Shown piece after piece: positions 3,380 through 32,000 of a stretch of DNA of 32,000 bases (position 1 is its first letter; every line of letters starts with the position of its first letter). The stretch lies in assembly GCA_942493095.1 (NCBI GenBank), contig OW818675.1, positions 2,040,001 to 2,072,000 of the forward strand, in the 5' to 3' direction. Below the pieces are notes generated by a model. It searched no databases, was not told the DNA's origin, and worked only from the letters and a program-made list of their open reading frames with translations. A program made the translations under genes and the position numbers. The stretch comes from Candidatus Electronema halotolerans (GTDB lineage Bacteria > Desulfobacterota > Desulfobulbia > Desulfobulbales > Desulfobulbaceae).

Positions 3380-3916
3380 ATGCAGAAAGTGAAAATATTG
3401 TCAGCTACAGCAGCAATGCTTTTCGTACTTACCGCAGGCAGTATTGCTTTTGCCTCAGCACCTTCTGCTTTGAGCAAAGAAATGCCTGAAGCCGCGAAAA
3501 AAGAGTTAGCTGCTGCTACAGAGGCAAAAGCAGCAGCGGCAGAAAAGCCTGCCGAGAAGTCCCTGTATGAGAAGCTCGGCGACAAGGCTATTGCTGATGC
3601 TGTAGAGAAGTTTTATGAGAAAGTGCTGGCTGATGACCGGGTCAACGGCTTTTTCAAAGGCGTTGACATGGACCGCCAGCGCAGAATGCAGACAGCCTTT
3701 CTCACCTATGCTTTTGGCGGCCCCAATGCATACCAAGGCCGGGACCTGCGGGCCGTTCACGCCCATCTTGTTGCCAGAGGGCTGAACGACACCCATTTTG
3801 ACATCATTGTCGAGCATCTGGGCAACACTCTGAAAGAGATAGGCGTTGGGGATGAAGACATCGCTCAGGCTGCCAAGGTTGCCAACAGTGTCCGCAATGA
3901 TGTGCTGAACAAGTAA
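3380..3916 (+). CDS. group I truncated haemoglobin (trHbN-like) with N-terminal signal peptide and Ala/Lys/Glu-rich linker
   Basis: The C-terminal ~120 aa (LYEKLGDKAIADAVEKFYEKVLADDRVNGFF...AVHAHL...HFDIIVEHL) match the 2-on-2 globin fold, with B10 Tyr and a proximal His candidate. The N-terminus MQKVKILSATAAMLFVLTAGSIAFA-SA looks like a Sec signal with an AxA site. AAAGGAG RBS is present. Confidence 0.85.
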   Translation: MQKVKILSATAAMLFVLTAGSIAFASAPSALSKEMPEAAKKELAAATEAKAAAAEKPAEKSLYEKLGDKAIADAVEKFYEKVLADDRVNGFFKGVDMDRQRRMQTAFLTYAFGGPNAYQGRDLRAVHAHLVARGLNDTHFDIIVEHLGNTLKEIGVGDEDIAQAAKVANSVRNDVLNK

Positions 3917-3919
3917 GCG

Positions 3920-5353
3920 TCAGGTTTTCCGCGCTGTGTCAGGCAGGCTTTCCGCAGGGAGGGCCTGCCTTTTTTTCTGCCAGATTTTGGCCGCCCGCAG
4001 CAGCCCTGCCGCCCATTCCGGCGCGCCTGGGGCAAGAATATGCGTGTAAAGGGCAAGGACATTGTTCTTTTGCAAACCATCACGTCTGCCCTGAAAACCG
4101 GTCCCGCGCTCCATGCGCAGAGCCAAGTCTTCCGCTCCGCCGTCCCAGCTTTCAACCACAGAATAGCGGAATTCATGCCCTTTCACCTGCGTTCCAAGCG
4201 GATAAAAGGGATTTTCCCGCTCAACCGTGAACATGGTGTAGCCATGCCCCTGCGGCTTGTGCGACATGGAAAATTTGATCGGAAAAATTCCGGTCAGCGG
4301 ATATTTTACGCCATCAACAACTATGGACTGGCCGAGAAAAATCAGGCCGCCGCATTCAGCGTAAATTGGCAGGCCCTGCTCTGCGGCTTGCCGGACAGAC
4401 TCGCGGAAAGAGGCATTTGCCGCCAAGTGCTGCGCCTGCGTTTCAGGAAAGCCGCCGCCAATGTAGAGCGCATCCAAACCCTCTGGCAGCCGTTCTGCCG
4501 TCAGGGCGTTGATCAGCACCAGTTCCGCCCCGCCCTCGCGCATGGCATCAAGGTTTTCCTGATAATAGAACTGAAAGGCGGCATCGCGGAGCACGGCAAT
4601 GCGCACCTCTGCCGGACTGCTGGGTGATGACGCTGGCAGCGCAAAAGAGCGCGGCTCTGCCAGCCGGGTGATCAGTTCCAGATCAAAATGTTCCTCAGCC
4701 AGCCCGGCTAAATGACTCACTGCTGCGCCGGCATTTGCGTCGCCATATTCCTGATGCGGGATCACGCCAAGATGGCGCATGGGGAAAATATCCTCTGTCA
4801 AACGGGGAATAATTCCAGCCACAGGAATGCCGGTGTCCTGCTCCACCGCCTGCCGGACGATTTGCTCGTGGCGGGGCGAGGCAATCTGATTGAGCAGCAC
4901 CCCGACGATGCGGAGTCGCTTGTCCAGCTCACGGCAGCCGAGCACCATTGCCGCCACAGTCCGGGTGGTCTTGCTGCAATTGACCACTAAGAGCACAGGC
5001 AAATCAAGGAGCAGGGCCAGCTCGGCAGTTGAGAATTCGCCCGCTGCCGTGACCCCGTCATACAGGCCCCGGTTGCCCTCAATCAGGGCAAAGTCCGTTC
5101 CTGCGGCGTGCTGCTGAAACGAGGTGCGGACAGCTGCCGCGCTCATCAAAAAGGGGTCAAGATTCCAGCAGGGCTGCCCGGCAGCGGCAGTCAGCCAGCC
5201 TGCGTCAATGTAATCCGGCCCTTTCTTGAATGGCACAATCCTCTGGCCGCGCTGCCGCAGAGCCGCTGCCAGCGCGACTGAAGCCACTGATTTGCCGGAG
5301 CCGCCGCTCAATCCGGCCATGACAAGGCAGCGGGCAGCAGAACTGTCAGGCAT
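3920..5353 (-). CDS. cbiA: cobyrinate a,c-diamide synthase (CbiA/CobB family amidotransferase)
   Basis: 477-aa ORF. It has an N-terminal P-loop (AGLSGGSGKS), PFKKGPDYID, and a C-terminal glutamine amidotransferase part (YAECGGLIFL). Confidence 0.85.
   Translation of the reverse strand: MPDSSAARCLVMAGLSGGSGKSVASVALAAALRQRGQRIVPFKKGPDYIDAGWLTAAAGQPCWNLDPFLMSAAAVRTSFQQHAAGTDFALIEGNRGLYDGVTAAGEFSTAELALLLDLPVLLVVNCSKTTRTVAAMVLGCRELDKRLRIVGVLLNQIASPRHEQIVRQAVEQDTGIPVAGIIPRLTEDIFPMRHLGVIPHQEYGDANAGAAVSHLAGLAEEHFDLELITRLAEPRSFALPASSPSSPAEVRIAVLRDAAFQFYYQENLDAMREGGAELVLINALTAERLPEGLDALYIGGGFPETQAQHLAANASFRESVRQAAEQGLPIYAECGGLIFLGQSIVVDGVKYPLTGIFPIKFSMSHKPQGHGYTMFTVERENPFYPLGTQVKGHEFRYSVVESWDGGAEDLALRMERGTGFQGRRDGLQKNNVLALYTHILAPGAPEWAAGLLRAAKIWQKKRQALPAESLPDTARKT
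3941..3976 (+). terminator. rho-independent terminator after the globin gene
   Basis: AGGCAGGC (3941-3948) pairs with GCCTGCCT (3963-3970), followed by a T7 run. It lies inside the 3' tail of the convergent cbiA ORF. Confidence 0.55.
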
Positions 5354-14230: not shown

Positions 14231-15278
14231 TATAGCGGTTTCGTATTGAACAGATATCAAACCCAGCAATGACGGAAAAACGATTTGATTGATTTTGACT
14301 TAACCGTTTTCAGAGATATATCATAAGCTTCCATCAGCTCACGCTCTGTTCTCGGCTTCAATTTTCTTATAGTGTTTTTCATTACTGACCAGCAGTATTC
14401 AATAGGGTTCAGTTCAGGACGATAAGGAGGGAGGAAAATGATCTTCGCTCCTGTACTTCTGATCAAAGCGAGAGCTTCTTTGTTTTTATGAGGACTGGCA
14501 TTGTCAAGAACGACTGTCTTGCTGCTGTCAAGATATTTCAAAAGATAATTTTTTATATAGAAATAAAAGACATCTCCTGTCATGGTGCCTTTAAATTTCA
14601 TGCACTTCAATATTTTTCCAAACTTTACAGCTCCTATCATGCTTATTCTTTTCCCTTTACCTGAAGGTCTTTTTGAAAAAGCTCTTGTTCCTTTTCTTGA
14701 TCTTGCAAATTTTCTCGACATGTTCAAACAGCATCCTGTCTCATCAATAAAGATGAAATTCTTTTTGTCAGCCTCGAGCAGGCCTGCAAGGTAATTAACT
14801 GTCTTTGCTATATTTTCCTCTTTATACGCCGCCGGATCGCGGAAAGTTTTTTTTCCGGCTGATTTTCAGTCTGGCGAGAGTTTCGCACAGCGTGGAAGGT
14901 GCTATTTTTAAATTGAATTTCTCGTATAAGCGATCACACATCTCTTCAAGCGTAAGATCGTTCTCGTCATCAATCATGCTGGTCAGAAAAGGCATATGAA
15001 CTTCCTTGATTTTCGGAGGATTTCCGCCTTTATGAGGCTTCGGCTCAAGCGTCCCCTCAGTCTTCCATCTTTTTACAAGACTTTGAACAAATTTATAGGA
15101 AACGTCAAGCAAATCTGCAGTTCTTCTCAATGATTTCTGTTTTTCATAAACAGACAAGACTTTCTTTCTGAAATCAATAGAATAAATCATGGCAGACCTC
15201 CGTGTGTAAAAAAATGGAAAAAACAGACAAGTCAAGTTTAATCTTTTTCTGATAACCATACAACCTGAAACCGCTATA
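14231..15278 (-). mobile_element. IS630-family insertion sequence (~1.05 kb) with TA target duplication
   Basis: Terminal inverted repeats are TATAGCGGTTTC (14231-14242) and its complement GAAACCGCTATA (15267-15278). TA at both ends is consistent with IS630/Tc1-type TA duplication. The element is low in GC and encodes a DDE transposase. Confidence 0.85.
14257..15190 (-). CDS. IS630-family transposase, in two frames joined at an A8 tract
   Basis: orfA (15190..14822) reads MIYSIDFRKKVLSVYEKQKSLRRTADLL... (HTH). orfB is open from 14859 and reads ...KKTFRDPAAYKEE...NFIFIDETGCCLNMSRKFARSRKG...VVLDNASPHK...LPPYRPELNPIEYCW (DDE). The A8 run is at 14847-14854. Joining the frames needs a +1 (or -2) shift. 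Confidence 0.85.
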
Positions 15279-15436
15279 GTATCGTCTTTTCTCGGCATGA
15301 AGTCCTGAGTCTCGATTTCTCCGTTCTCTTTATGAACAGAAACGGAATATCCTTCCTGCATCATTTTGTGATGCTTGCCGCGCACTCCGCCTGTGAAATC
15401 GTATTCTGAGCGCATCTCTTTTCCTGTTTTTTTCAT
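15279..15436 (-). pseudogene. small antitoxin-like gene (EYDF-x-GGVRGK motif) interrupted near its 3' end by the IS630
   Basis: MKKTGKEMRSEYDFTGGVRGKHHKMMQEGYSVSVHKENGEIETQDFMPRKDDT then enters the IS. Removing the IS and one TA restores ...DDTIIL-stop (TAA at 14220-14222). Confidence 0.5.
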
Positions 15437-15506
15437 GTCAGCAGCCCTCATAGAATTGCCGTTCTGACCTGTTGCCTTGCGGCAGCTTATCGCCTGGGCC
15501 GCAGCC

Positions 15507-15630: not shown

Positions 15631-16059
15631 TCAATCTGTCGGAGGATGCAACCCAATGATAAACAACGCTTTACGAATATTAACGAGTCCTGGCCGATTC
15701 AACTTTAATGCCTGAACCGTTGCACGTCCAACCGCCGTCAGCCCGACAATGCGGCTATAATCGTGATTCCAGCGAAAGTGATCCTGCCATTGTTGTGTTC
15801 TGGGATTATACAGCGGAACGACTTTTCCGTCCGCCGGGTCGGGAGAGCGTATTTTGTTATACTTGTGCGCGTTGCATCCCGGACAGGCTAATGCCAGATT
15901 TTCCAATGCTGTTTCGCCATTCAGGCTGACCGGCATGATATGCTCCACGGAAAAGGACTGGGTTGCAAAATCAGCCCTGCTCTGGCAATACTCGCAACGC
16001 CCTTGGGCACGCTCGGCAACAGCCTGTTTTTCCGGGACGGTCACATAGCGTCTAACCAT
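15631..16059 (-). CDS. HNH endonuclease
   Basis: 142 aa with CEYCQ...EHIMPVSLNGETALENLALACPGCNAHK (HNH with Zn-ribbon cysteines). Confidence 0.85.
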   Translation of the reverse strand: MVRRYVTVPEKQAVAERAQGRCEYCQSRADFATQSFSVEHIMPVSLNGETALENLALACPGCNAHKYNKIRSPDPADGKVVPLYNPRTQQWQDHFRWNHDYSRIVGLTAVGRATVQALKLNRPGLVNIRKALFIIGLHPPTD

Positions 16060-16453
16060 AAGCGGGCGGATGAATATTTAAGGTGCTCATCAATGCTGTC
16101 ACGGATACATTACGCAATTGAGCCAGCCTGATTAATGCCTGCGCACGTTCTGCGTCTGCCAGTTCAATGTGTTCAATCAGCACCAGCAGTTCCTGCTGTT
16201 CCTCATGGGTCAGGGTTTCAGCATGACGCTTTTCTGTCAGTTCGTTATAACGCCGTTGCGTGTCCGGCGGCAAACTCTGATTGATTTTCTCCAGCATTTC
16301 AGCTTCCTGCTTGGAAAGACTCGGCGCGATACGTCTGGCACGCAAGGTCAGCACCCAAGAAACGAACTGTTCCAGATCGTTCGTTTCCAGTTGCGCGACA
16401 CCTTTGAGCAAGTTGTTGAGAGTGACTTGAGAACGCATTTCAGTTGTCGGCAT
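16052..16453 (-). CDS. hypothetical helical protein translationally coupled to the HNH gene
   Basis: 133-aa ORF with an AGGAG RBS. Its stop overlaps the HNH start by 8 nt. It is charged and helical (…EQQELLVLIEHIELADAERAQALIRLAQLRN…). I recognise no family. Confidence 0.6.
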   Translation of the reverse strand: MPTTEMRSQVTLNNLLKGVAQLETNDLEQFVSWVLTLRARRIAPSLSKQEAEMLEKINQSLPPDTQRRYNELTEKRHAETLTHEEQQELLVLIEHIELADAERAQALIRLAQLRNVSVTALMSTLNIHPPAYG

Positions 16454-21968: not shown

Positions 21969-22119
21969 GGCGGGAGACAAAATAAAAAAAAGACAGCCGG
22001 GCACTCCTGCAACACATAAGACGTTTCGCTGCCGCTGCTTCCTTCCGGACCTGACGGGGTTCACGATGCCTTATTGCGCAGGACCCGGCTGTCAAACTTG
22101 GGTCTTGTCATTGTCATAC

Positions 22120-22205
22120 TGGCGGAGAGGGTGAGATTCGAACTCACGGCACTTGCGTGCACACGCGTTCCAGGCGTGCACCTTAAGCCACTCGGTCACC
22201 TCTCC
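22120..22205 (-). tRNA. tRNA-Ser (anticodon GGA)
   Basis: GGAGAGGTGACCGAGTGGCTTAAGGTGCACGCCTGGAACGCGTGTGCACGCAAGTGCCGTGAGTTCGAATCTCACCCTCTCCGCCA forms a cloverleaf with a long variable arm, anticodon loop CUGGAAC and encoded CCA. Confidence 0.95.
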
Positions 22206-24496: not shown

Positions 24497-24571
24497 AGGC
24501 GCGTAGCTCAGGGGGAGAGCGCTACCTTGACACGGTAGAGGTCGGCGGTTCGAAACCGCCCGCGCCTACCA
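24497..24571 (+). tRNA. tRNA-Val (anticodon GAC)
   Basis: AGGCGCGTAGCTCAGGGGGAGAGCGCTACCTTGACACGGTAGAGGTCGGCGGTTCGAAACCGCCCGCGCCTACCA forms a canonical cloverleaf with encoded CCA. Confidence 0.95.
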
Positions 24572-24645: not shown

Positions 24646-24684
24646 GATTCAATTTTTCACGCGAATTTGTCAGCGGCAGAACTC

Positions 24685-26619
24685 ATGACTTCCATAGCAG
24701 TCTCCATCTCCGGCGGGGAAGCAAAGCAGCTTCCGAGCGGCACCTCTGTCCTTGACGCGCTCAAGGAGCTGGTCTCCGGCAAGCAGCGCAAGCAGACTGT
24801 GGCGGCCCGCTGCAACGGCAGCATGGTTGATCTGTCTGCGCCGCTCAACCATGATGCGGTCTTGGAGCTGATTTCTGCCAGCTCAGAGGAAGGGCTGCAT
24901 ATCCTCCGGCACTCGGCTGCCCATATCATGGCCCAAGCGGTCAAGGAGCTGCACGGCCAGGAGGTGCAAGTCACTATCGGCCCGGCCATTGAGGACGGCT
25001 ATTATTACGATTTCGACCGCAAGCCCGCCTTCACGCCTGACGATTTCGAGGCGATTGAAGAGAAGATGGCGACCATTGTCAAGGCGGCTCTGCCGTTTTC
25101 CCGCCGCGAAGTGCCGATTGCCGAGGCCATAGATTTTTTCACCCAGCACGACGAGACCTACAAAGTTGAGCTGATCAAGGACTTGGCCGCGCAGGGCGAG
25201 ACTGTTGTTTCCCTCTATCAGCAGGGTGATTTCATTGATCTCTGCCGGGGGCCGCATCTCCCGGACACCTCGTTCCTGAAATGCTTCAAGCTGCTGCGGG
25301 TGGCAGGCTCCTACTGGCGGGGCGATGAAAAGAACCAGATGCTGACCCGGATTTACGGCACTGCCTTTTTTGATAAAAAAGAGCTGAAGCAGTATCTGGA
25401 CCGGCTGGAGGAAGCCAAGCGGCGTGACCATCGCAAATTAGGCAAGGAACTGAAGCTCTTCACGATTCAGGATGAGATCGGGCCGGGTCTGCCCCTTTGG
25501 CAGCCGCGTGGTGCCTTGCTGCGGCGGCTGATTGAGGACTACTGGAAGGATGCCCATTACAAGAACGGGTATCAGCTTGTCTGCACCCCCCATATTGCCC
25601 GCCAAGATTTGTGGCACACCTCCGGCCACTTGGACTTTTATGCCGAGAACATGTATTCGGCCATGAGCATTGACGAGGTGGCTTATCAGCTCAAGCCGAT
25701 GAACTGCCCTTTCCATATCGGCATCTACAAATCCGAGCCGCACAGCTACCGCGAATTTCCCATCCGCTGGTGCGAGCTGGGCACCGTCTATCGCTACGAG
25801 CGGGCTGGCGCCCTGCACGGCCTGATGCGGGTGCGCGGCTTCACCCAGGACGATGCCCATATTTTCTGCCGCCCTGATCAGCTTGAAGAGGAAATCTTCA
25901 ACATCATTGACCTGAACCTGCATGTCCTTCAGACCTTTGGTTTCAGCGAGTATGATGTCTATCTTTCCACCCGCCCGGAAAAATACGTGGGCAGCGACGA
26001 GCACTGGGACCTGTCCACCAAAGCCTTGCAGCAGGCAATGGACAAGAAAGGGCTGGCATACTCGGTTGATCCGGGGGAAGGCGTATTTTACGGTCCAAAG
26101 ATTGACATAAAAATTAAGGATCAGATTGGCCGCTCGTGGCAGTGCTCCACGATTCAGGTTGATTTCAACCTGCCGGAACGCTTCGGCATGACCTATGCTG
26201 GCCAAGACGGAGCCGATCATCAGCCGATCATGATTCACCGCGCTTTGATGGGTTCGCTGGAGCGTTTCATTGGGGTGCTGATCGAGCATTATGCCGGTGC
26301 CTTTCCGCTCTGGCTGGCCCCGGAGCAGGCCCGGATCATGAACATCACGGACAGTCAGGCCGACTACTGCGGCCACGTGCTGGCTGAACTGCGGCAGGCC
26401 GGTCTCCGGGTTGAGGCGGACTTGCGCAACGAGAAATTAAATTATAAGATACGGGAGGCCCAGCTGATGAAGACTCCCTACATGCTCATTGCGGGCGACC
26501 GGGAAATGGAGGAAGGCACTGTCACTGTGCGCAAGCGCAGCGGTGAAAACCTGCCTCCCATGCTGCCGCAGGATTTTCTGGCCTTGGTGCGCCAGGAATG
26601 CCAAGAACAAGCAGTCTGA
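24685..26619 (+). CDS. thrS: threonine--tRNA ligase
   Basis: ORF 24667..26619 has a TGS domain N-terminus, the second additional domain and class II core motifs. ATG at 24685 is preferred over TTG at 24667. Confidence 0.93.
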   Translation: MTSIAVSISGGEAKQLPSGTSVLDALKELVSGKQRKQTVAARCNGSMVDLSAPLNHDAVLELISASSEEGLHILRHSAAHIMAQAVKELHGQEVQVTIGPAIEDGYYYDFDRKPAFTPDDFEAIEEKMATIVKAALPFSRREVPIAEAIDFFTQHDETYKVELIKDLAAQGETVVSLYQQGDFIDLCRGPHLPDTSFLKCFKLLRVAGSYWRGDEKNQMLTRIYGTAFFDKKELKQYLDRLEEAKRRDHRKLGKELKLFTIQDEIGPGLPLWQPRGALLRRLIEDYWKDAHYKNGYQLVCTPHIARQDLWHTSGHLDFYAENMYSAMSIDEVAYQLKPMNCPFHIGIYKSEPHSYREFPIRWCELGTVYRYERAGALHGLMRVRGFTQDDAHIFCRPDQLEEEIFNIIDLNLHVLQTFGFSEYDVYLSTRPEKYVGSDEHWDLSTKALQQAMDKKGLAYSVDPGEGVFYGPKIDIKIKDQIGRSWQCSTIQVDFNLPERFGMTYAGQDGADHQPIMIHRALMGSLERFIGVLIEHYAGAFPLWLAPEQARIMNITDSQADYCGHVLAELRQAGLRVEADLRNEKLNYKIREAQLMKTPYMLIAGDREMEEGTVTVRKRSGENLPPMLPQDFLALVRQECQEQAV

Positions 26620-27491: not shown

Positions 27492-27857
27492 ATGCCACGC
27501 GTCACACGCGGGTTTAAAGCCCGCCGGAGAAGAAATAAGGTCCTGCAATTGGCCAAAGGCTATCGGGGCGGCAGAAGCCGTCTCTTCCGCACTGCTGCGG
27601 AAGCGGTTGACCGCGCCCTTTGCTATGCCTATCGCGACCGCCGTACCAATAAGCGTAATTTCCGTGCGTTGTGGATCACCCGCATCAGCGCGGCTGCCAA
27701 GCTGAACGGCACCAGTTACAACAAGCTGATGCACGGTTTCAAGCAGGCCGGGATTGAGCTGGACCGCAAGGTGCTGTCCAATCTGGCCATTGTTGATCCT
27801 GCCGCCTTCAGCGCGCTGGTGAAAAAATCTCTCGGACAGCAGGAAGCGACTGCCTGA
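27492..27857 (+). CDS. rplT: 50S ribosomal protein L20
   Basis: [35 protein letters not shown]... Confidence 0.95.
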
Positions 27858-28864
27858 TGGAAGAAACGCTGCGCAAGCTGCGGACGGAAGCGGAAGCGGC
27901 TCTGGGCGCGGTCAGCAAGCTGGCCGGGCTGGAGGAAGTCCGGGTCAAATATCTGGGCCGCAAGGGGCTGCTGGCCGAGGCCATGAAGCAGCTCGGCAAA
28001 GCTGCCCCGGCAGACCGGCCCCGCTTGGGCCAAGTTGCCAATGCGGTCAAGCAGGACGTGGAGAGCCTTTTTCAGGCTAAAAAAGAGGCTCTGGAGGCTG
28101 GCAGCCAGCCGGTCAAGCAGATGCTTGATCTCAGCCTGCCTGGCCGCTTTGTTCCTGTTGGCAAGCTCCATCCTGTCACCCAGGTGATGGAGGAAATCTG
28201 CGCTGTTTTTGAAGGCATGGGTTTTGCTGTGGCTGAAGGCCCGGATGTGGAGACCGATTATTACAATTTCGAGGCTCTCAACATCCCGGCCCATCATCCG
28301 GCCAGAGACATGCACGACACCTTTTATGTGTCTGATTCTCTCCTCCTGCGCACCCACACCTCGACCATGCAGGCGCGGATCATGGAAAAGCAGGAGCCGC
28401 CTCTGCGCTATATCGCGCCGGGCAAGGTCTATCGCTGCGATTCTGACATCACCCACACCCCGATGTTTCATCAGGTCGAGGGCTTTCTCGTTGACCGCCA
28501 AGTTTCTTTTGCTGATCTGAAAGGAGTCTTGGGACTCTTCTCCCGCCGTATTTTTCAGGGTGATCTGCCCCTGCGCTTCCGACCCAGCTTTTTTCCCTTC
28601 ACTGAACCCAGCGCAGAGGTTGACATTGCCTGCGTGATCTGCAAAGGCGCAGGCTGCCGGGTCTGCAAGCAGACTGGCTGGATTGAAATTCTTGGCGCGG
28701 GCATGATTGACCCGGAAGTCATGAACATGGTCGGTTATGACCCGGAGCAGTTCTCCGGCTTTGCCTTTGGTCTTGGCGTGGAACGCATCGCCATGCTCAA
28801 GTACGGCATTGATGACATCCGCATGTATTACGAGAACGATCTGCGGTTTCTCAGGCAGTTCTGA
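27857..28864 (+). CDS. pheS: phenylalanine--tRNA ligase alpha subunit
   Basis: 335 aa with class II motifs (…[11 protein letters not shown]…, …[16 protein letters not shown]…, …[14 protein letters not shown]…). The start overlaps the rplT stop (TGATG). Confidence 0.95.
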
Positions 28865-28867
28865 CAA

Positions 28868-29101
28868 ATGGCTGTTTTGATTGAGCTGCCGGAACACCAA
28901 GCAGCTTTGCTCAAACAATACTGCCATGAGGCGCAAATCAGCGAGGCAGAGGCAGTCGGACAAGCCTTGACCCAGTTTTTGGCGCGGATAGTGCAGAAAC
29001 CCCGCCGTATTTTGCGTGAACACCCGGCTTTTGGGCTTTGGCGGGACAAGCAGCAGGACGGACTGGCTTACCAACGGCATCTGCGTGATGAACGGCCTTG
29101 A
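28868..29101 (+). CDS. ribbon-helix-helix VapB-type antitoxin
   Basis: 77 aa, starting 4 nt after the pheS stop. The C-terminal ...HPAFGLWRDKQQDGLAYQRHLRDE is the motif I associate with RHH antitoxins paired with PIN toxins. Confidence 0.7.
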   Translation: MAVLIELPEHQAALLKQYCHEAQISEAEAVGQALTQFLARIVQKPRRILREHPAFGLWRDKQQDGLAYQRHLRDERP

Positions 29102-29134
29102 ACAGGCGGACGAGGAGTATCAGCGTATAAGCAG

Positions 29135-29364
29135 GTTTATATCAGCCTGATCACTTGGATGGAAGTGATGGTCGGCGCAAAGGAAGGCGACAGGCTGACA
29201 GAGGATTTTCTGCGGATGTATTTTGTTGTGCTGCCCCCATCACTCAAGACATTGCCGAACAGGCCGTGATTCAAGCCACCGCGTAAAAGCACAACGCCCT
29301 TCTGGTGACGCGCAACACTCGCGATTTTCCTCCCAGCTCCGACTGTGTGCGGATTCCATACTAA
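29135..29364 (+). pseudogene. decayed PIN-domain toxin (vapC remnant)
   Basis: Frame 1 reads VYISLITWMEVMVGAKEGDRLTEDFLRMYFVVLP. After a frameshift it reads IAEQAVIQATA-stop-KHNALLVTRNTRDFPP...IPY-stop. The N-terminal DTN region is missing, with an internal stop and a frameshift. Confidence 0.55.
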
Positions 29365-29388
29365 CATGATCAGTGCAGTAGAAATATT

Positions 29389-29482
29389 ATGAAATTAACC
29401 CTGACTTGGCTTGGCCAATATATTTTTCTTGATGGCCTGTCCGCAGCGCAGCGCGCTGACCATGCTCGGCTTGGAGGTGGAG
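29389..29482 (+). pseudogene. diverged duplicate of the pheT 5' end (frameshifted by an 8-nt gap)
   Basis: ATGAAATTAACCCTGACTTGGCTTGGCCAATATATTTTTCTTGATGGCCTGTCCGCAGC... aligns to 30062-30163 at about 84/93 identities plus an 8-nt gap. It reads MKLTLTWLGQYIFLDGLSAAQ, then goes out of frame and stops at 29512. Confidence 0.8.
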
Positions 29483-29530
29483 ACAGTTCGGACTGCAAAA
29501 ATTCAGTTGATTAAATAATTACGGCATGTC

Positions 29531-29818
29531 ATGCGGCTGAAGTTTGAATGGGATGAAAATAAAAATGCGGTCAATATTCGCAAGCACAAGATTGACTTCG
29601 AGGACATTCCAGAACTTTTTCAAAAGCCGATGCTTATTGATTATGATGGCAGGCAGAATTACGGTGAAGAACGTTGGCTTGGAATAGGGTTGCTGCATAA
29701 CGTGGCAGTAGCTGTGGTATTTACAGAACGCGGTGAAAGCACAATTCGAATAATTTCAGCACGAAAAGCAACAAAAGAAGAGCGGCGGCAATATGACGAA
29801 AGAATCTTCCAAAACTGA
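29531..29818 (+). CDS. brnT: BrnT-family (DUF497) ribonuclease toxin
   Basis: FEWDENKNAVNIRKHKIDFED...EERW...IRIISARKATKEERRQY. Confidence 0.85.
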   Translation: MRLKFEWDENKNAVNIRKHKIDFEDIPELFQKPMLIDYDGRQNYGEERWLGIGLLHNVAVAVVFTERGESTIRIISARKATKEERRQYDERIFQN

Positions 29819-30065
29819 CTGGGCAGCTCTGGAAAACATGACAGATGCGGAAATAGATTTTTCTGATATTTCACGTCTGCCAAAGGCATTTTTTGAACGA
29901 GCTGAACTATGGCAGCCGAAAAATAAAGTGAATGTCACAGTGGCAATAGACGAGGACCTGCTGCAATGGTTTAAAGCAGCAAGCGATGACTGGGAAGGAA
30001 GAATGCAGGCCGCATTACGTCTGTATGTTGAAACACATAAGGCATTCAGTTCCACACGCCCATGA
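29793..30065 (+). CDS. brnA: BrnA-family (DUF4415-like) antitoxin
   Basis: TDWAALENMTDAEIDFSDI...KVNVTVAIDEDLLQWFKA...MQAALRLYV. It overlaps brnT by 26 nt, and its TGA overlaps the pheT ATG (ATGA at 30062-30065). Confidence 0.8.
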   Translation: MTKESSKTDWAALENMTDAEIDFSDISRLPKAFFERAELWQPKNKVNVTVAIDEDLLQWFKAASDDWEGRMQAALRLYVETHKAFSSTRP

Positions 30066-32000
30066 AATTCACCCTGATTTGGCTTGGCCAATATATTTCT
30101 CTTAACGGCCTGTCCGCAGCACAGCTTGCCGACCGCCTGACCATGCTCGGCTTGGAGGTGGAAGCGGTGCAGAAGCTGTACGCCGGGCTGGAGGCGGTCA
30201 AGACCGCAAAAGTTCTGTCCGTGCAGAAGCATCCTAATGCTGACCGGCTGACCTTGTGCGACGTGGAGGTCGGCGGGCAAATCCTGCCTGTTGTCTGCGG
30301 CGCGCCCAATGTCCGAGCTGGATTAGTGACCGCCATTGCCCTGCCCGGCGCAAAGCTGCCTGACGGCCTGACGATCAAAAAAGCCAAGGTGCGCGGCCAA
30401 GTTTCCGAGGGAATGCTTTGCTCGTGGAAAGAACTGGGCATCAGCGAGGCCAGCTCCGGCATTGTTGAGCTGGATGCCGCCTTGGCATCCGGCCAACCCC
30501 TGCGCGAGGCTCTCGGCCTGCACGACACGATGGTCGAAGTTGATCTCACGCCGAATCGGGCCGACTGCGCCAGTGTGCTGGGCATTGCCCGCGAAGTGAG
30601 CGGAGTTACAGGCCAGCAGGTCTGCCGTCCTGTAACAACCTTGCCCGATTTGTCTCAACCTGCTGAATTCACGGTTGCTATTGACGAGCCGCAGCTCTGT
30701 CCTCGCTATGCGGCCCGCAGACTGACTGACGCGACGATCAAGCCGTCGCCGTGGTGGCTCCAGCGGCTGCTCTTGGCAGTTGGAATGCGTCCGATCAACA
30801 ACATTGTTGACATCACCAACTTTGTCATGCTGGAGTATGGCCAGCCGCTTCATGCCTTTGATTATGCGAAGATTGCAGGCAAAGGCATTGTGGTTCGGCA
30901 GCCCAAGGCGGATGAGAGCAAGTTCACCACCTTGGACGGCAGCGAGCGCAGTCTTGAGCCGGACATGCTCCTGATTTGTGATCAGGAAAAGCCGGTGGCA
31001 ATGGCCGGGGTCATGGGCGGTCTCAATTCCGAGGTGACAGATGGAACCACGGATATTCTCCTCGAATCGGCCTGCTTTGATCCGGTTTCCATCCGCCGCA
31101 CCGCCCGCCGGCTCAATCTCGCCTCAGAGGCATCCTACCGCTTTGAGCGCGGTGTCAACCCGGACGGCGTGACCGAGGCTCTGGAACGTGCTGCGCAGCT
31201 TATCTGTGAGCTGGCTGGAGCGCAGGCTGCGGACGGCGTTGATTTGTATCCCGGCAAAAAAAAGCTGCTTCAGCTTGAACTGCGGGTGCAGCGGGTCAAC
31301 AACTTGCTCGGCACTGATCTCAGCAGTGGGCAGGTTGCCGCCTGTCTGCGCGGGATTGAATTTGCTGTGGAAGAAGACGGCGAATTGCTGCGCGTGACTG
31401 TGCCAGCCTTCCGCATTGACATTGAACGCGAAGCTGATTTGATCGAGGAAGTGGCCCGCTTGGTCGGCTACAACGAGATTCCGGTCACGCTGCCCAAGAT
31501 GGCAATGGACTGCCCGCAGCCTGCACCGCTCCGCCAACTCCGCAAAAAGATTGCGGCGGCAATGACCGGCCTCGGCTTTTACGAGGCAGTCAATTACTCC
31601 TTTGTCAGCAAAAAGCATAACGACTGGCTCAACTTGGCTGCTGCTGATTCCCGCAGGCAGCAGGTGGAGCTGCTCAATCCTCTCAGTGAAGATCAGGCCG
31701 TGCTGCGCACCATGCTCCTGTCCGGCCTCTTGGACAATGTCCGCCGCAACATCAGCTTTCAGCAGACCGATGTCCGCCTTTTTGAGGTGGGCAAAGTCTT
31801 CGCCTTCACCGCTCCGGGCCAGCAGCCTGTTGAGCGGCACCAGCTCTGCGCCGTGATCAGCGGCAGCCGTTATCCAGAGGCCAGCCCGCTCTATTTTTCC
31901 AGCCAAGAGAGTGATATCTTCGACCTGAAAGGTGCAATGCAGGCTTTGCTTCGGGAACTGCGGCTGGAAGCAGCAGTCAGTTTCGCAGCTTCAGAAGGTC
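30062..32000 (+). CDS. pheT: phenylalanine--tRNA ligase beta subunit (5' part; runs off the right edge)
   Basis: I translated the frame by eye from 30062 to ~31500 with no stop and assume it stays open to the window end. It is not in the ORF track (no in-window stop). It reads MKFTLIWLGQYISLNGLSAAQLADRLTMLGLEVEAV...KHPNADRLTLCDVEVGG...VRGQVSEGMLCS...FRIDIEREADLIEEVARLVGYNEIP. Confidence 0.9.
   Translation, partial: MKFTLIWLGQYISLNGLSAAQLADRLTMLGLEVEAVQKLYAGLEAVKTAKVLSVQKHPNADRLTLCDVEVGGQILPVVCGAPNVRAGLVTAIALPGAKLPDGLTIKKAKVRGQVSEGMLCSWKELGISEASSGIVELDAALASGQPLREALGLHDTMVEVDLTPNRADCASVLGIAREVSGVTGQQVCRPVTTLPDLSQPAEFTVAIDEPQLCPRYAARRLTDATIKPSPWWLQRLLLAVGMRPINNIVDITNFVMLEYGQPLHAFDYAKIAGKGIVVRQPKADESKFTTLDGSERSLEPDMLLICDQEKPVAMAGVMGGLNSEVTDGTTDILLESACFDPVSIRRTARRLNLASEASYRFERGVNPDGVTEALERAAQLICELAGAQAADGVDLYPGKKKLLQLELRVQRVNNLLGTDLSSGQVAACLRGIEFAVEEDGELLRVTVPAFRIDIEREADLIEEVARLVGYNEIPVTLPKMAMDCPQPAPLRQLRKKIAAAMTGLGFYEAVNYSFVSKKHNDWLNLAAADSRRQQVELLNPLSEDQAVLRTMLLSGLLDNVRRNISFQQTDVRLFEVGKVFAFTAPGQQPVERHQLCAVISGSRYPEASPLYFSSQESDIFDLKGAMQALLRELRLEAAVSFAASEG

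Follow-up and report, generated by a model that had tools for sequence, protein, structure and literature searches.

How did two toxin-antitoxin modules come to lie between the two subunit genes of an essential enzyme, phenylalanyl-tRNA synthetase (PheRS), and why does the start of the second of these genes occur twice? The question is raised by the pheS-pheT junction of the cable bacterium Candidatus Electronema halotolerans, which we analysed within a window of 32,000 nucleotides (assembly GCA_942493095.1, contig OW818675.1, positions 2,040,001 to 2,072,000 of the forward strand; coordinates given below without a contig name refer to this window). The pheS-pheT interval measures 1,197 nt and contains an antitoxin gene of the ribbon-helix-helix (RHH) type, a PIN toxin pseudogene, a leader plus a relic of the pheT 5' end, and the gene pair brnT-brnA, after which the functional pheT begins. 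On balance, and with little more than even confidence, we read this arrangement as a mosaic toxin-antitoxin array produced by recombination between two versions of the pheS/pheT junction that circulate in Candidatus Electronema. The brnTA and vapBC families themselves are ordinary and well known, and no new molecular machine is revealed by the locus; it is the arrangement that is unusual. Full-text literature searches turned up neither a case of toxin-antitoxin modules at pheS-pheT nor any account of toxin-antitoxin systems in cable-bacterium genomes.

An initial annotation of the window had described the junction as colonised by two toxin-antitoxin modules, with the pheT 5' end duplicated around one of them, and this anatomy proved accurate in every detail, down to the coordinates of each element. 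The interval is framed by two conserved anchors, pheS for the α subunit on the left (27857-28864, + strand; PF01409 at 2e-102, PF02912 at 2.5e-21) and the functional pheT for the β subunit on the right (30062-32000, + strand, truncated by the end of the window; PF03483, PF17759, PF03484, and PF01588). The displaced pheT 5' relic (29389-29507, + strand) has a core at 29389-29482 that corresponds to pheT nt 1-102; as a direct repeat, this core matches 30062-30163 at 85 of 94 positions, with one frame-shifting gap of 8 nt. The relic may reach to about pheT nt 157 with a second deletion, to judge from a further stretch at 29491-29507 that is identical to pheT nt 141-157 at 14 of 17 positions (a score reached by 15 of 1000 shuffles). 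Immediately in front of the relic are 24 nt (29365-29388, + strand) that align with the leader found directly before intact pheT in the related loci L001, L091, and L173. Because this leader and the end of the PIN relic both align with these three loci, the upstream copy can be identified as the resident pheT start in its original place.

The relic is confined to the window genome and its sister strain, represented by contig L172, where it differs from the window relic by one mismatch; it is absent from all other loci examined, and the spacers of 14 related loci contained nothing resembling pheS 3' or pheT 5' relics beyond chance-level 12-17-mers. It differs at 8-11 sites from the resident pheT copy, the sister strain, and L082, compared with 12-15 sites from other lineages, and it has clade-only bases in common with the resident copy. 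Any donor must thus have been a very close relative, since the relic is closest to the resident copy and the sister strain. For a phylogeny of the repeats there are too few sites, but the distances place the relic nearest the resident copy and not any sampled foreign lineage. The separate origin that had been proposed for the two repeats, on account of their identity of only about 90%, was consequently not borne out. Part of this 10% divergence is pseudogene decay.

In the scenario that we favour, a first allele would have carried vapB-vapC directly upstream of pheT, and in a second one brnT-brnA would have held that place, the stop of brnA being fused to the start of pheT. A chromosome of the vapBC type would then have acquired brnTA-type DNA by a single homologous exchange within pheT and a single illegitimate joint, which would link the resident pheT at about nt 105-157 to a site some 20 nt in front of brnT. 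As a result, the resident pheT 5' end would have been pushed upstream as a dead relic, and brnTA would have been installed together with a fresh pheT start. An event of this type would be a homology-facilitated illegitimate recombination, and it probably took place within the E. halotolerans lineage before the window genome and the sister strain split. Acquisition from a related lineage by this route was one of two origins put forward in the initial annotation, and it is favoured here by the occurrence of both parental types, by the native leader upstream of the relic, and by further joints of this kind in relatives. At the junction itself, brnA runs unbroken into pheT on the right flank; on the left, the relic stops abruptly at 29482-29507, and homology to other brnTA loci sets in by blastn at 29526-29527, roughly 4 nt from the brnT ATG, and a looser similarity can be traced some 20 nt back, to about 29505. 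Blastn coordinates and the alignment of brnT upstream regions hence delimit a zone at 29508-29530 (+ strand) that would comprise the illegitimate joint and a short brnT leader. A possible GT/GTTG overlap near 29505-29509 is the only candidate for microhomology at this joint.

A survey of 80 species-representative genomes indicated that the gap between pheS and pheT is usually short, amounting to 4-6 nt in most Desulfobacterales-like genomes and to 20-344 nt in most Desulfobulbales. In the cable-bacterium clade the gap is filled, with contents that differ by lineage, and both parental junction types are found separately there. A junction with vapBC only, as one would look for in a search for intermediates, was encountered in L091, where DUF4058 and PD-(D/E)XK genes are followed by the RHH gene, an intact PIN gene, the 24-nt leader, and pheT. 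The brnTA type is present in L084-L088, in the order pheS, a 75-nt spacer, brnT, and brnA with its 4-nt overlap with pheT, and with neither RHH gene nor relic. We also considered the L084 spacer as a pheT relic, a candidate that was rejected as its end-free alignment was not significant (69 of 500 shuffles reach the score). In L001, L173, L176, and L090, the RHH gene is kept intact straight after pheS, and its PIN partner has decayed or given way to unrelated small genes (membrane, secreted, or DUF2442).

Other illegitimate joints involve the same two module types. In L089, RHH and PIN relics are joined, in mid-PIN, at about 20 nt upstream of brnT, after which brnA is fused to pheT. The protein P0021 from Desulfobulbus sp. 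F5 (MCW5206205.1; also on a JGI contig, as P0022) is a 74-aa chimera of BrnA (residues 5-42) and RHH (45-75), which implies an illegitimate joint between both module types in the order opposite to that of the window. At the same locus, contig L174 (JGI 3300036147; 3790-4653) has a decayed pheS 3' fragment, extending from the GFLVDRQ motif onward with internal deletions, in front of RHH-PIN; AT-rich foreign genes (radical SAM; aminotransferase/methyltransferase) directly precede this fragment, and the L174 PIN has the same 14-codon deletion and stop as the PIN relic of the window. On the pheS side of the junction, this fragment looks like the mirror-image counterpart of the pheT relic. Since relatives hold such alternative versions of the junction, we regard it as a hot spot in cable bacteria for the recombination of toxin-antitoxin modules.

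The first of the two modules in the window begins with the intact orphan RHH/CopG-type antitoxin gene (28868-29101, + strand, 77 codons), which starts 3 nt past the pheS stop, that is, in the slot occupied by pheT in genomes without the insert. Its product alone had no Pfam match, and the homolog in L091 gave only a sub-threshold match to RHH_3. A profile of 11 RHH homologs, however, matches PDB 7by2_A of the CopG family at 6.8e-8, chain B of that entry being VapC, and in L091 the RHH homolog overlaps the intact PIN gene, antitoxin gene first. On these two grounds we assign the 77-aa open reading frame (ORF) as a VapB-type antitoxin. The vapC (PIN) pseudogene (29079-29364, + strand) was delineated by tblastn with the intact L091 PIN, which itself matches PF01850 at 2.7e-15 and the PDB VapC 7by2_B at 5.4e-26; it matches 29079-29361 in three frames (5e-33), and the original stop is still present at 29362-29364. 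The reading frame is missing its first 14 codons and a further 14 codons internally, is shifted twice, and is interrupted by an in-frame stop. The pair thus resembles VapBC in that the RHH/CopG gene lies directly 5' of the PIN gene and in that the RHH profile and the L091 PIN match chains A and B of one PDB entry; it differs in that the toxin of the window is a pseudogene, intact PIN being found only in relatives such as L091, and that only the antitoxin is left, under purifying selection. In the window, L001, L173, and L176, where PIN is dead or has been replaced, the RHH gene has nonetheless stayed intact, and its ratio of non-synonymous to synonymous divergence (dN/dS) is 0.07-0.29 in every pair, including pairs in which both lineages are devoid of a working PIN. 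From these ratios we infer that the orphan antitoxin gene is being maintained, and they suggest a function for it as an orphan.

The second module consists of brnT (29531-29818, + strand), an intact gene for a RelE-fold ribonuclease toxin of 95 aa, and brnA (29793-30065, + strand), an intact antitoxin gene for 90 aa. BrnT matches PF04365 at 2.5e-27 (95.4 bits, cut-off 34.5, over all 77 profile positions) and, among PDB structures, 7vd7_A at 1.2e-17 and Brucella BrnT 3u97 at 2.4e-6; BrnA matches PF14384 at 1.5e-9 (38.5 bits, cut-off 26.1) and shows 100% identity to an NCBI protein of Candidatus Electronema halotolerans. The two genes overlap by 26 nt, toxin gene first, and the TGA of brnA overlaps the ATG of pheT in an ATGA at 30062-30065, a 4-nt overlap that is common to L081-L089. 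With dN/dS values of 0.13-0.16 for brnT and about 0.08 for brnA, brnTA is, like the orphan RHH gene, under purifying selection as judged from sequence comparison. In having both Pfam families above cut-offs, matches to BrnT-type structures, the toxin gene in first position, overlapping ORFs, and similar sizes, the pair agrees with the BrnT/BrnA prototype of Brucella abortus (PDB 3u97), a type that is common on plasmids. Homologs on 861 plasmid records have the same gene order as the window pair, but every plasmid copy is less than 60% identical to it. The pair further departs from its kin by residing inside an essential operon with its stop codon fused to the pheT start, and by apparently lacking a conserved upstream region able to hold an autoregulated promoter of its own: only about 4-20 nt upstream of brnT are conserved among carriers, and promoter-like matches are weak (9/12) and lie within the relic. 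BrnA homologs at ≤72% identity sit in unrelated contexts and not beside pheT, so that the association of brnTA with pheT appears specific to Electronema. An idea we discarded is that the BrnA tail arose by read-through into the old pheT leader, as tails of similar length occur in homologs elsewhere. The brnT gene of L082 has a 9-nt in-frame deletion, and at the start of this contig (L082:1-110, equivalent to window 29518-29561) a 44-nt unit made up of the brnT leader and the first 10 codons occurs about 2.4 times in tandem, perhaps because the assembly looped where the contig ends, or else through a true tandem duplication beside the joint.

When might the relic have formed? Its distance to the resident pheT is about 0.10, and for pheT the synonymous divergence (dS) rises from 0.11 with the sister strain to 0.44 with L083 and 0.66 with L084. 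As L083 and L084 already carry the fusion of brnA to pheT, the dating argues that this fusion predates the relic, which in turn favours recombination of two pre-existing alleles over a duplication at the first arrival of brnTA. Evidence of exchange comes from comparisons between strains. Window and L083 differ at 1 of 315 positions in the brnT 3' end plus brnA and at 89 of 805 in pheT (p = 1.5e-12), with the break at pheT nt 17; window and L082 are identical over 540 positions of brnTA but show 25 mismatches in 800 of pheT (p = 3e-6), the first one at pheT nt 36. On the left side, the comparison with L172 gave 7 differing sites in 28514-29493 and 9 in 28330-28513. The array thus looks younger than its flanks, as would be expected if it spread by homologous recombination anchored in pheS and pheT. 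In the region corresponding to window 30116-30146 (pheT nt 55-85), two distinct allele types are distributed as a mosaic across lineages with and without brnTA (L084-L091, L173); L085, for example, carries brnTA together with the allele type of L090 and L091. This mosaic pattern would indicate frequent recombination within the pheT 5' region.

Several points weigh against an origin by recombination of two junction alleles. The joint can be placed no finer than 29482-29526, exact parental sequences lacking; the identity breaks towards L082 and L083 come from short metagenome contigs that are possibly chimeric at the repeated pheT 5' sequence; with about 94 informative nt, the error on the date of the relic is wide; and the relic could owe a young appearance to gene conversion with the resident copy. 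Moreover, the RHH and PIN relics that abut brnT in L089, and the 75-nt spacer of L084, whose best local match in the insert is a weak one to the PIN relic (11 of 500 shuffles reach the score), also fit an older composite array that later decayed. Such an array, in the order vapB-vapC-pheT'-brnTA-pheT, might have arisen once in the ancestor of all brnTA-carrying Electronema; the brnTA-only form (L084) and the relic-poor form (L089) would then be deletion derivatives, and L001, L090, and L091 would have lost brnTA by recombination between the pheT repeats, a process that would exactly restore the structure of L091 or L001. The divergence of brnTA, which is similar to that of its flanks (dS from window to L084 of 0.76-1.10 for brnTA versus about 0.65 for pheS and pheT), would be in line with this history. 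We nevertheless think it unlikely, for the relic is limited to the E. halotolerans clade and has clade-specific bases of the resident copy, its divergence of about 0.10 contrasts with the approximately 0.33 per site (half of the pheT dS of 0.66) expected if the relic had been evolving neutrally since the split from L084, and PIN is still intact in L091.

We are even less inclined to assume a purely intragenomic origin, in which local duplication or slipped-strand events in an ancestor with tandem vapBC and brnTA copied the leader and the pheT 5' end with no outside DNA. The resident pheT copy of the same genome and that of the sister strain are indeed the nearest available relatives of the relic, as this route would predict. 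Yet the native PIN-to-pheT leader in front of the relic places PIN beside pheT, and not beside brnT, before the event, the fusion of brnA to pheT occurs without vapBC in L084-L088, and at least two precise steps would be needed to proceed from a tandem array to the observed order. Close relatives contain both alleles with a single module, but no relic-free vapBC-brnTA-pheT intermediate of the kind predicted by this route was encountered among them, which likewise speaks against it.

The other origin proposed in the initial annotation, an integrating cassette, can be largely refuted and is in our judgement very unlikely. A mobile brnTA element with an attachment site in the pheT 5' end, bringing along its own replacement start in the manner of tRNA-targeting islands, would account for an insert flanked by direct repeats of the target-gene end, and the two comparisons in which the near-identical brnTA segment of diverged strains ends within pheT nt 17-36 might be taken to point the same way. 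The position of the joint differs in every mosaic, though, and the other brnTA loci (L084-L089) lack a left-hand repeat; BrnA homologs at ≤72% identity, as mentioned, are not neighbours of pheT, and there is no room for an attC-like site. As the initial annotation had noticed, no recombinase is present in or beside the insert, where all ORFs of 28865-30061 are accounted for; the nearest transposase, a split gene of the IS630 family (14257-15451, - strand; helix-turn-helix ORF at 14822-15451, DDE_3 ORF at 14257-14727), is 13 kb off. The likeness to end-targeting integrative islands, such as those at tRNA genes, lies in the direct repeats of the target end that flank the insert and in the gene being left intact; the differences are that here there is no integrase, that the cargo amounts to only about 570 nt, and that the boundaries are not reproducible between lineages. 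Hardly credible, finally, is an assembly artefact in which the repeat was made by misassembling two strains, conceivable in a metagenome-assembled genome (MAG) whose related strains share similar samples, since the MAG is a circular Nanopore assembly polished with Illumina reads (PMC10030654), both repeats are spanned by an independent Logan short-read contig, L081, that matches 28462-32000 at 100% identity, the sister-strain contig L172 (98.6% identical) has the same RHH gene, PIN relic, and pheT relic including the 8-nt gap, and the repeat copies differ by 10% plus an 8-nt indel, all of which concurs with the initial annotation in making an artefact improbable.

Recombination between two junction alleles by homology-facilitated illegitimate recombination, to which we return, has counterparts elsewhere. 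As described for naturally transformable bacteria and for conjugation in E. coli (PMC3240628), the process likewise combines one homologous anchor, here pheT, with one non-homologous joint and inserts foreign DNA beside the anchor; the event in the cable bacterium differs in being deduced from comparative anatomy alone. The same process has been proposed for the orphan immunity-gene arrays of type VI secretion system (T6SS) clusters in Vibrio (PMC5361080). Those of Vibrio cholerae, together with the C-terminal arrays of Rhs and contact-dependent inhibition (CDI) systems cited there, are the closest architectural analogue of the present locus. Common to all is a conserved anchor gene beside a variable toxin/antidote slot, in which an incoming module displaces the end of a resident gene, relics of that end remain, and the old antidote gene, here the RHH gene, is kept as an orphan. 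On the other hand, the anchors here are the housekeeping genes pheS and pheT and not polymorphic toxin genes, the cargo consists of type II toxin-antitoxin pairs that act inside the cell, it is a 5' end rather than a 3' end that was displaced, and the array is short, with two modules.

What does this arrangement mean for the expression of pheT? No convincing terminator was found between pheS and pheT, promoter-like matches there are weak only, and a Shine-Dalgarno sequence before pheT is absent in the window as well as in relatives. In genomes without the insert, pheT starts 4-6 nt past the pheS stop; with such a gap and no Shine-Dalgarno sequence, termination-reinitiation is the likely ancestral mode of pheT translation. 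Gene spacing would be consistent with read-through transcription of the whole block from the rplT-pheS message and with translation of pheT by termination-reinitiation at the brnA/pheT ATGA, so that the RHH gene would hold the pheS-coupled position and brnA would provide the overlapping stop for pheT. The relic opens an ORF of 41 codons (29389-29514) that ends 16 nt before brnT and might bring ribosomes to it. Given the intact genes and their dN/dS of 0.08-0.16, brnTA is probably a live type II module in which the BrnT ribonuclease is neutralised by BrnA; vapC is dead, and vapB would be kept as an orphan antitoxin.

Deletions within such a module slot would be likely to harm an essential gene, and the initial annotation had argued that the toxin-antitoxin module would be hard to lose. 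This receives support from the brnA/pheT overlap, which is conserved across lineages at dS of about 0.5-1.1; it is at odds with the finding that the pheT starts of L089, which has brnTA, and L001, which has none, are 92.6% identical over 339 nt. A bolder generalisation would make the pheS/pheT junction of cable bacteria a standing capture site for type II toxin-antitoxin modules, which enter by displacing the end of an essential gene, with old antitoxins being kept as anti-addiction immunity and synthesis of the PheRS β subunit being translationally tied to an antitoxin. We consider this rather doubtful. If it were true, the locus would be the housekeeping-gene counterpart of the Rhs/CDI/T6SS displacement arrays, and PheRS stoichiometry, and hence tRNA-Phe charging, would follow the state of a toxin-antitoxin module. 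Beyond that, the locus suggests that a hot spot at which selfish toxin-antitoxin modules recombine can persist for a long time between two genes whose products are subunits of one essential enzyme. Module swapping without a recombinase has left a legible scar there: the start of a gene has been displaced, an antitoxin has lost its toxin, and relatives contain chimeric genes. The locus could also reveal, as a natural experiment, whether toxin-antitoxin genes are shielded from loss once they are embedded in an essential operon and whether orphan antitoxins are retained for a reason, and it provides a concrete site at which to follow strain-to-strain recombination in uncultured cable bacteria.

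As to the wider setting, the local gene order is thrS, infC, rpmI, rplT, pheS, the insert, pheT, and a gene for an HU/IHF-family DNA-binding protein, and the genes of the thrS-pheT cluster are tightly spaced or overlap. The pheS start overlaps the rplT stop by 1 nt, and on contig L081 pheT has 810 codons and overlaps the HU/IHF-family gene by 4 nt. The thrS gene (24667-26619, an ORF of 650 aa) was assigned by position only. Looking up PheS by its exact sequence gave no match. A structured-RNA scan found no Rfam family in the junction. Insertions between pheS and pheT are encountered in further lineages as well. In another lineage of Desulfobulbaceae, a pair of HEPN-type (PF08780) and nucleotidyltransferase (PF18765) genes ends 3 nt before pheT (L002:7132-7886, L092:2743-3497). 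In distant metagenome lineages, the insert comprises three ORFs of 242, 308, and 313 aa in L165 (388-3041), the 313-aa product appearing DNA methyltransferase-like by eye, or a single ORF of about 610 aa each in L145 (1057-2886) and L164 (1648-3492). Elsewhere in the window, the IS630 transposase gene adjoins an HNH endonuclease gene (15631-16059, - strand), which overlaps an ORF of 133 aa at 16052-16453. A small signal recognition particle RNA (21992-22090, - strand) adjoins a tRNA gene (22123-22205, - strand), and a second tRNA gene (24497-24568, + strand) lies just 5' of the thrS ORF.

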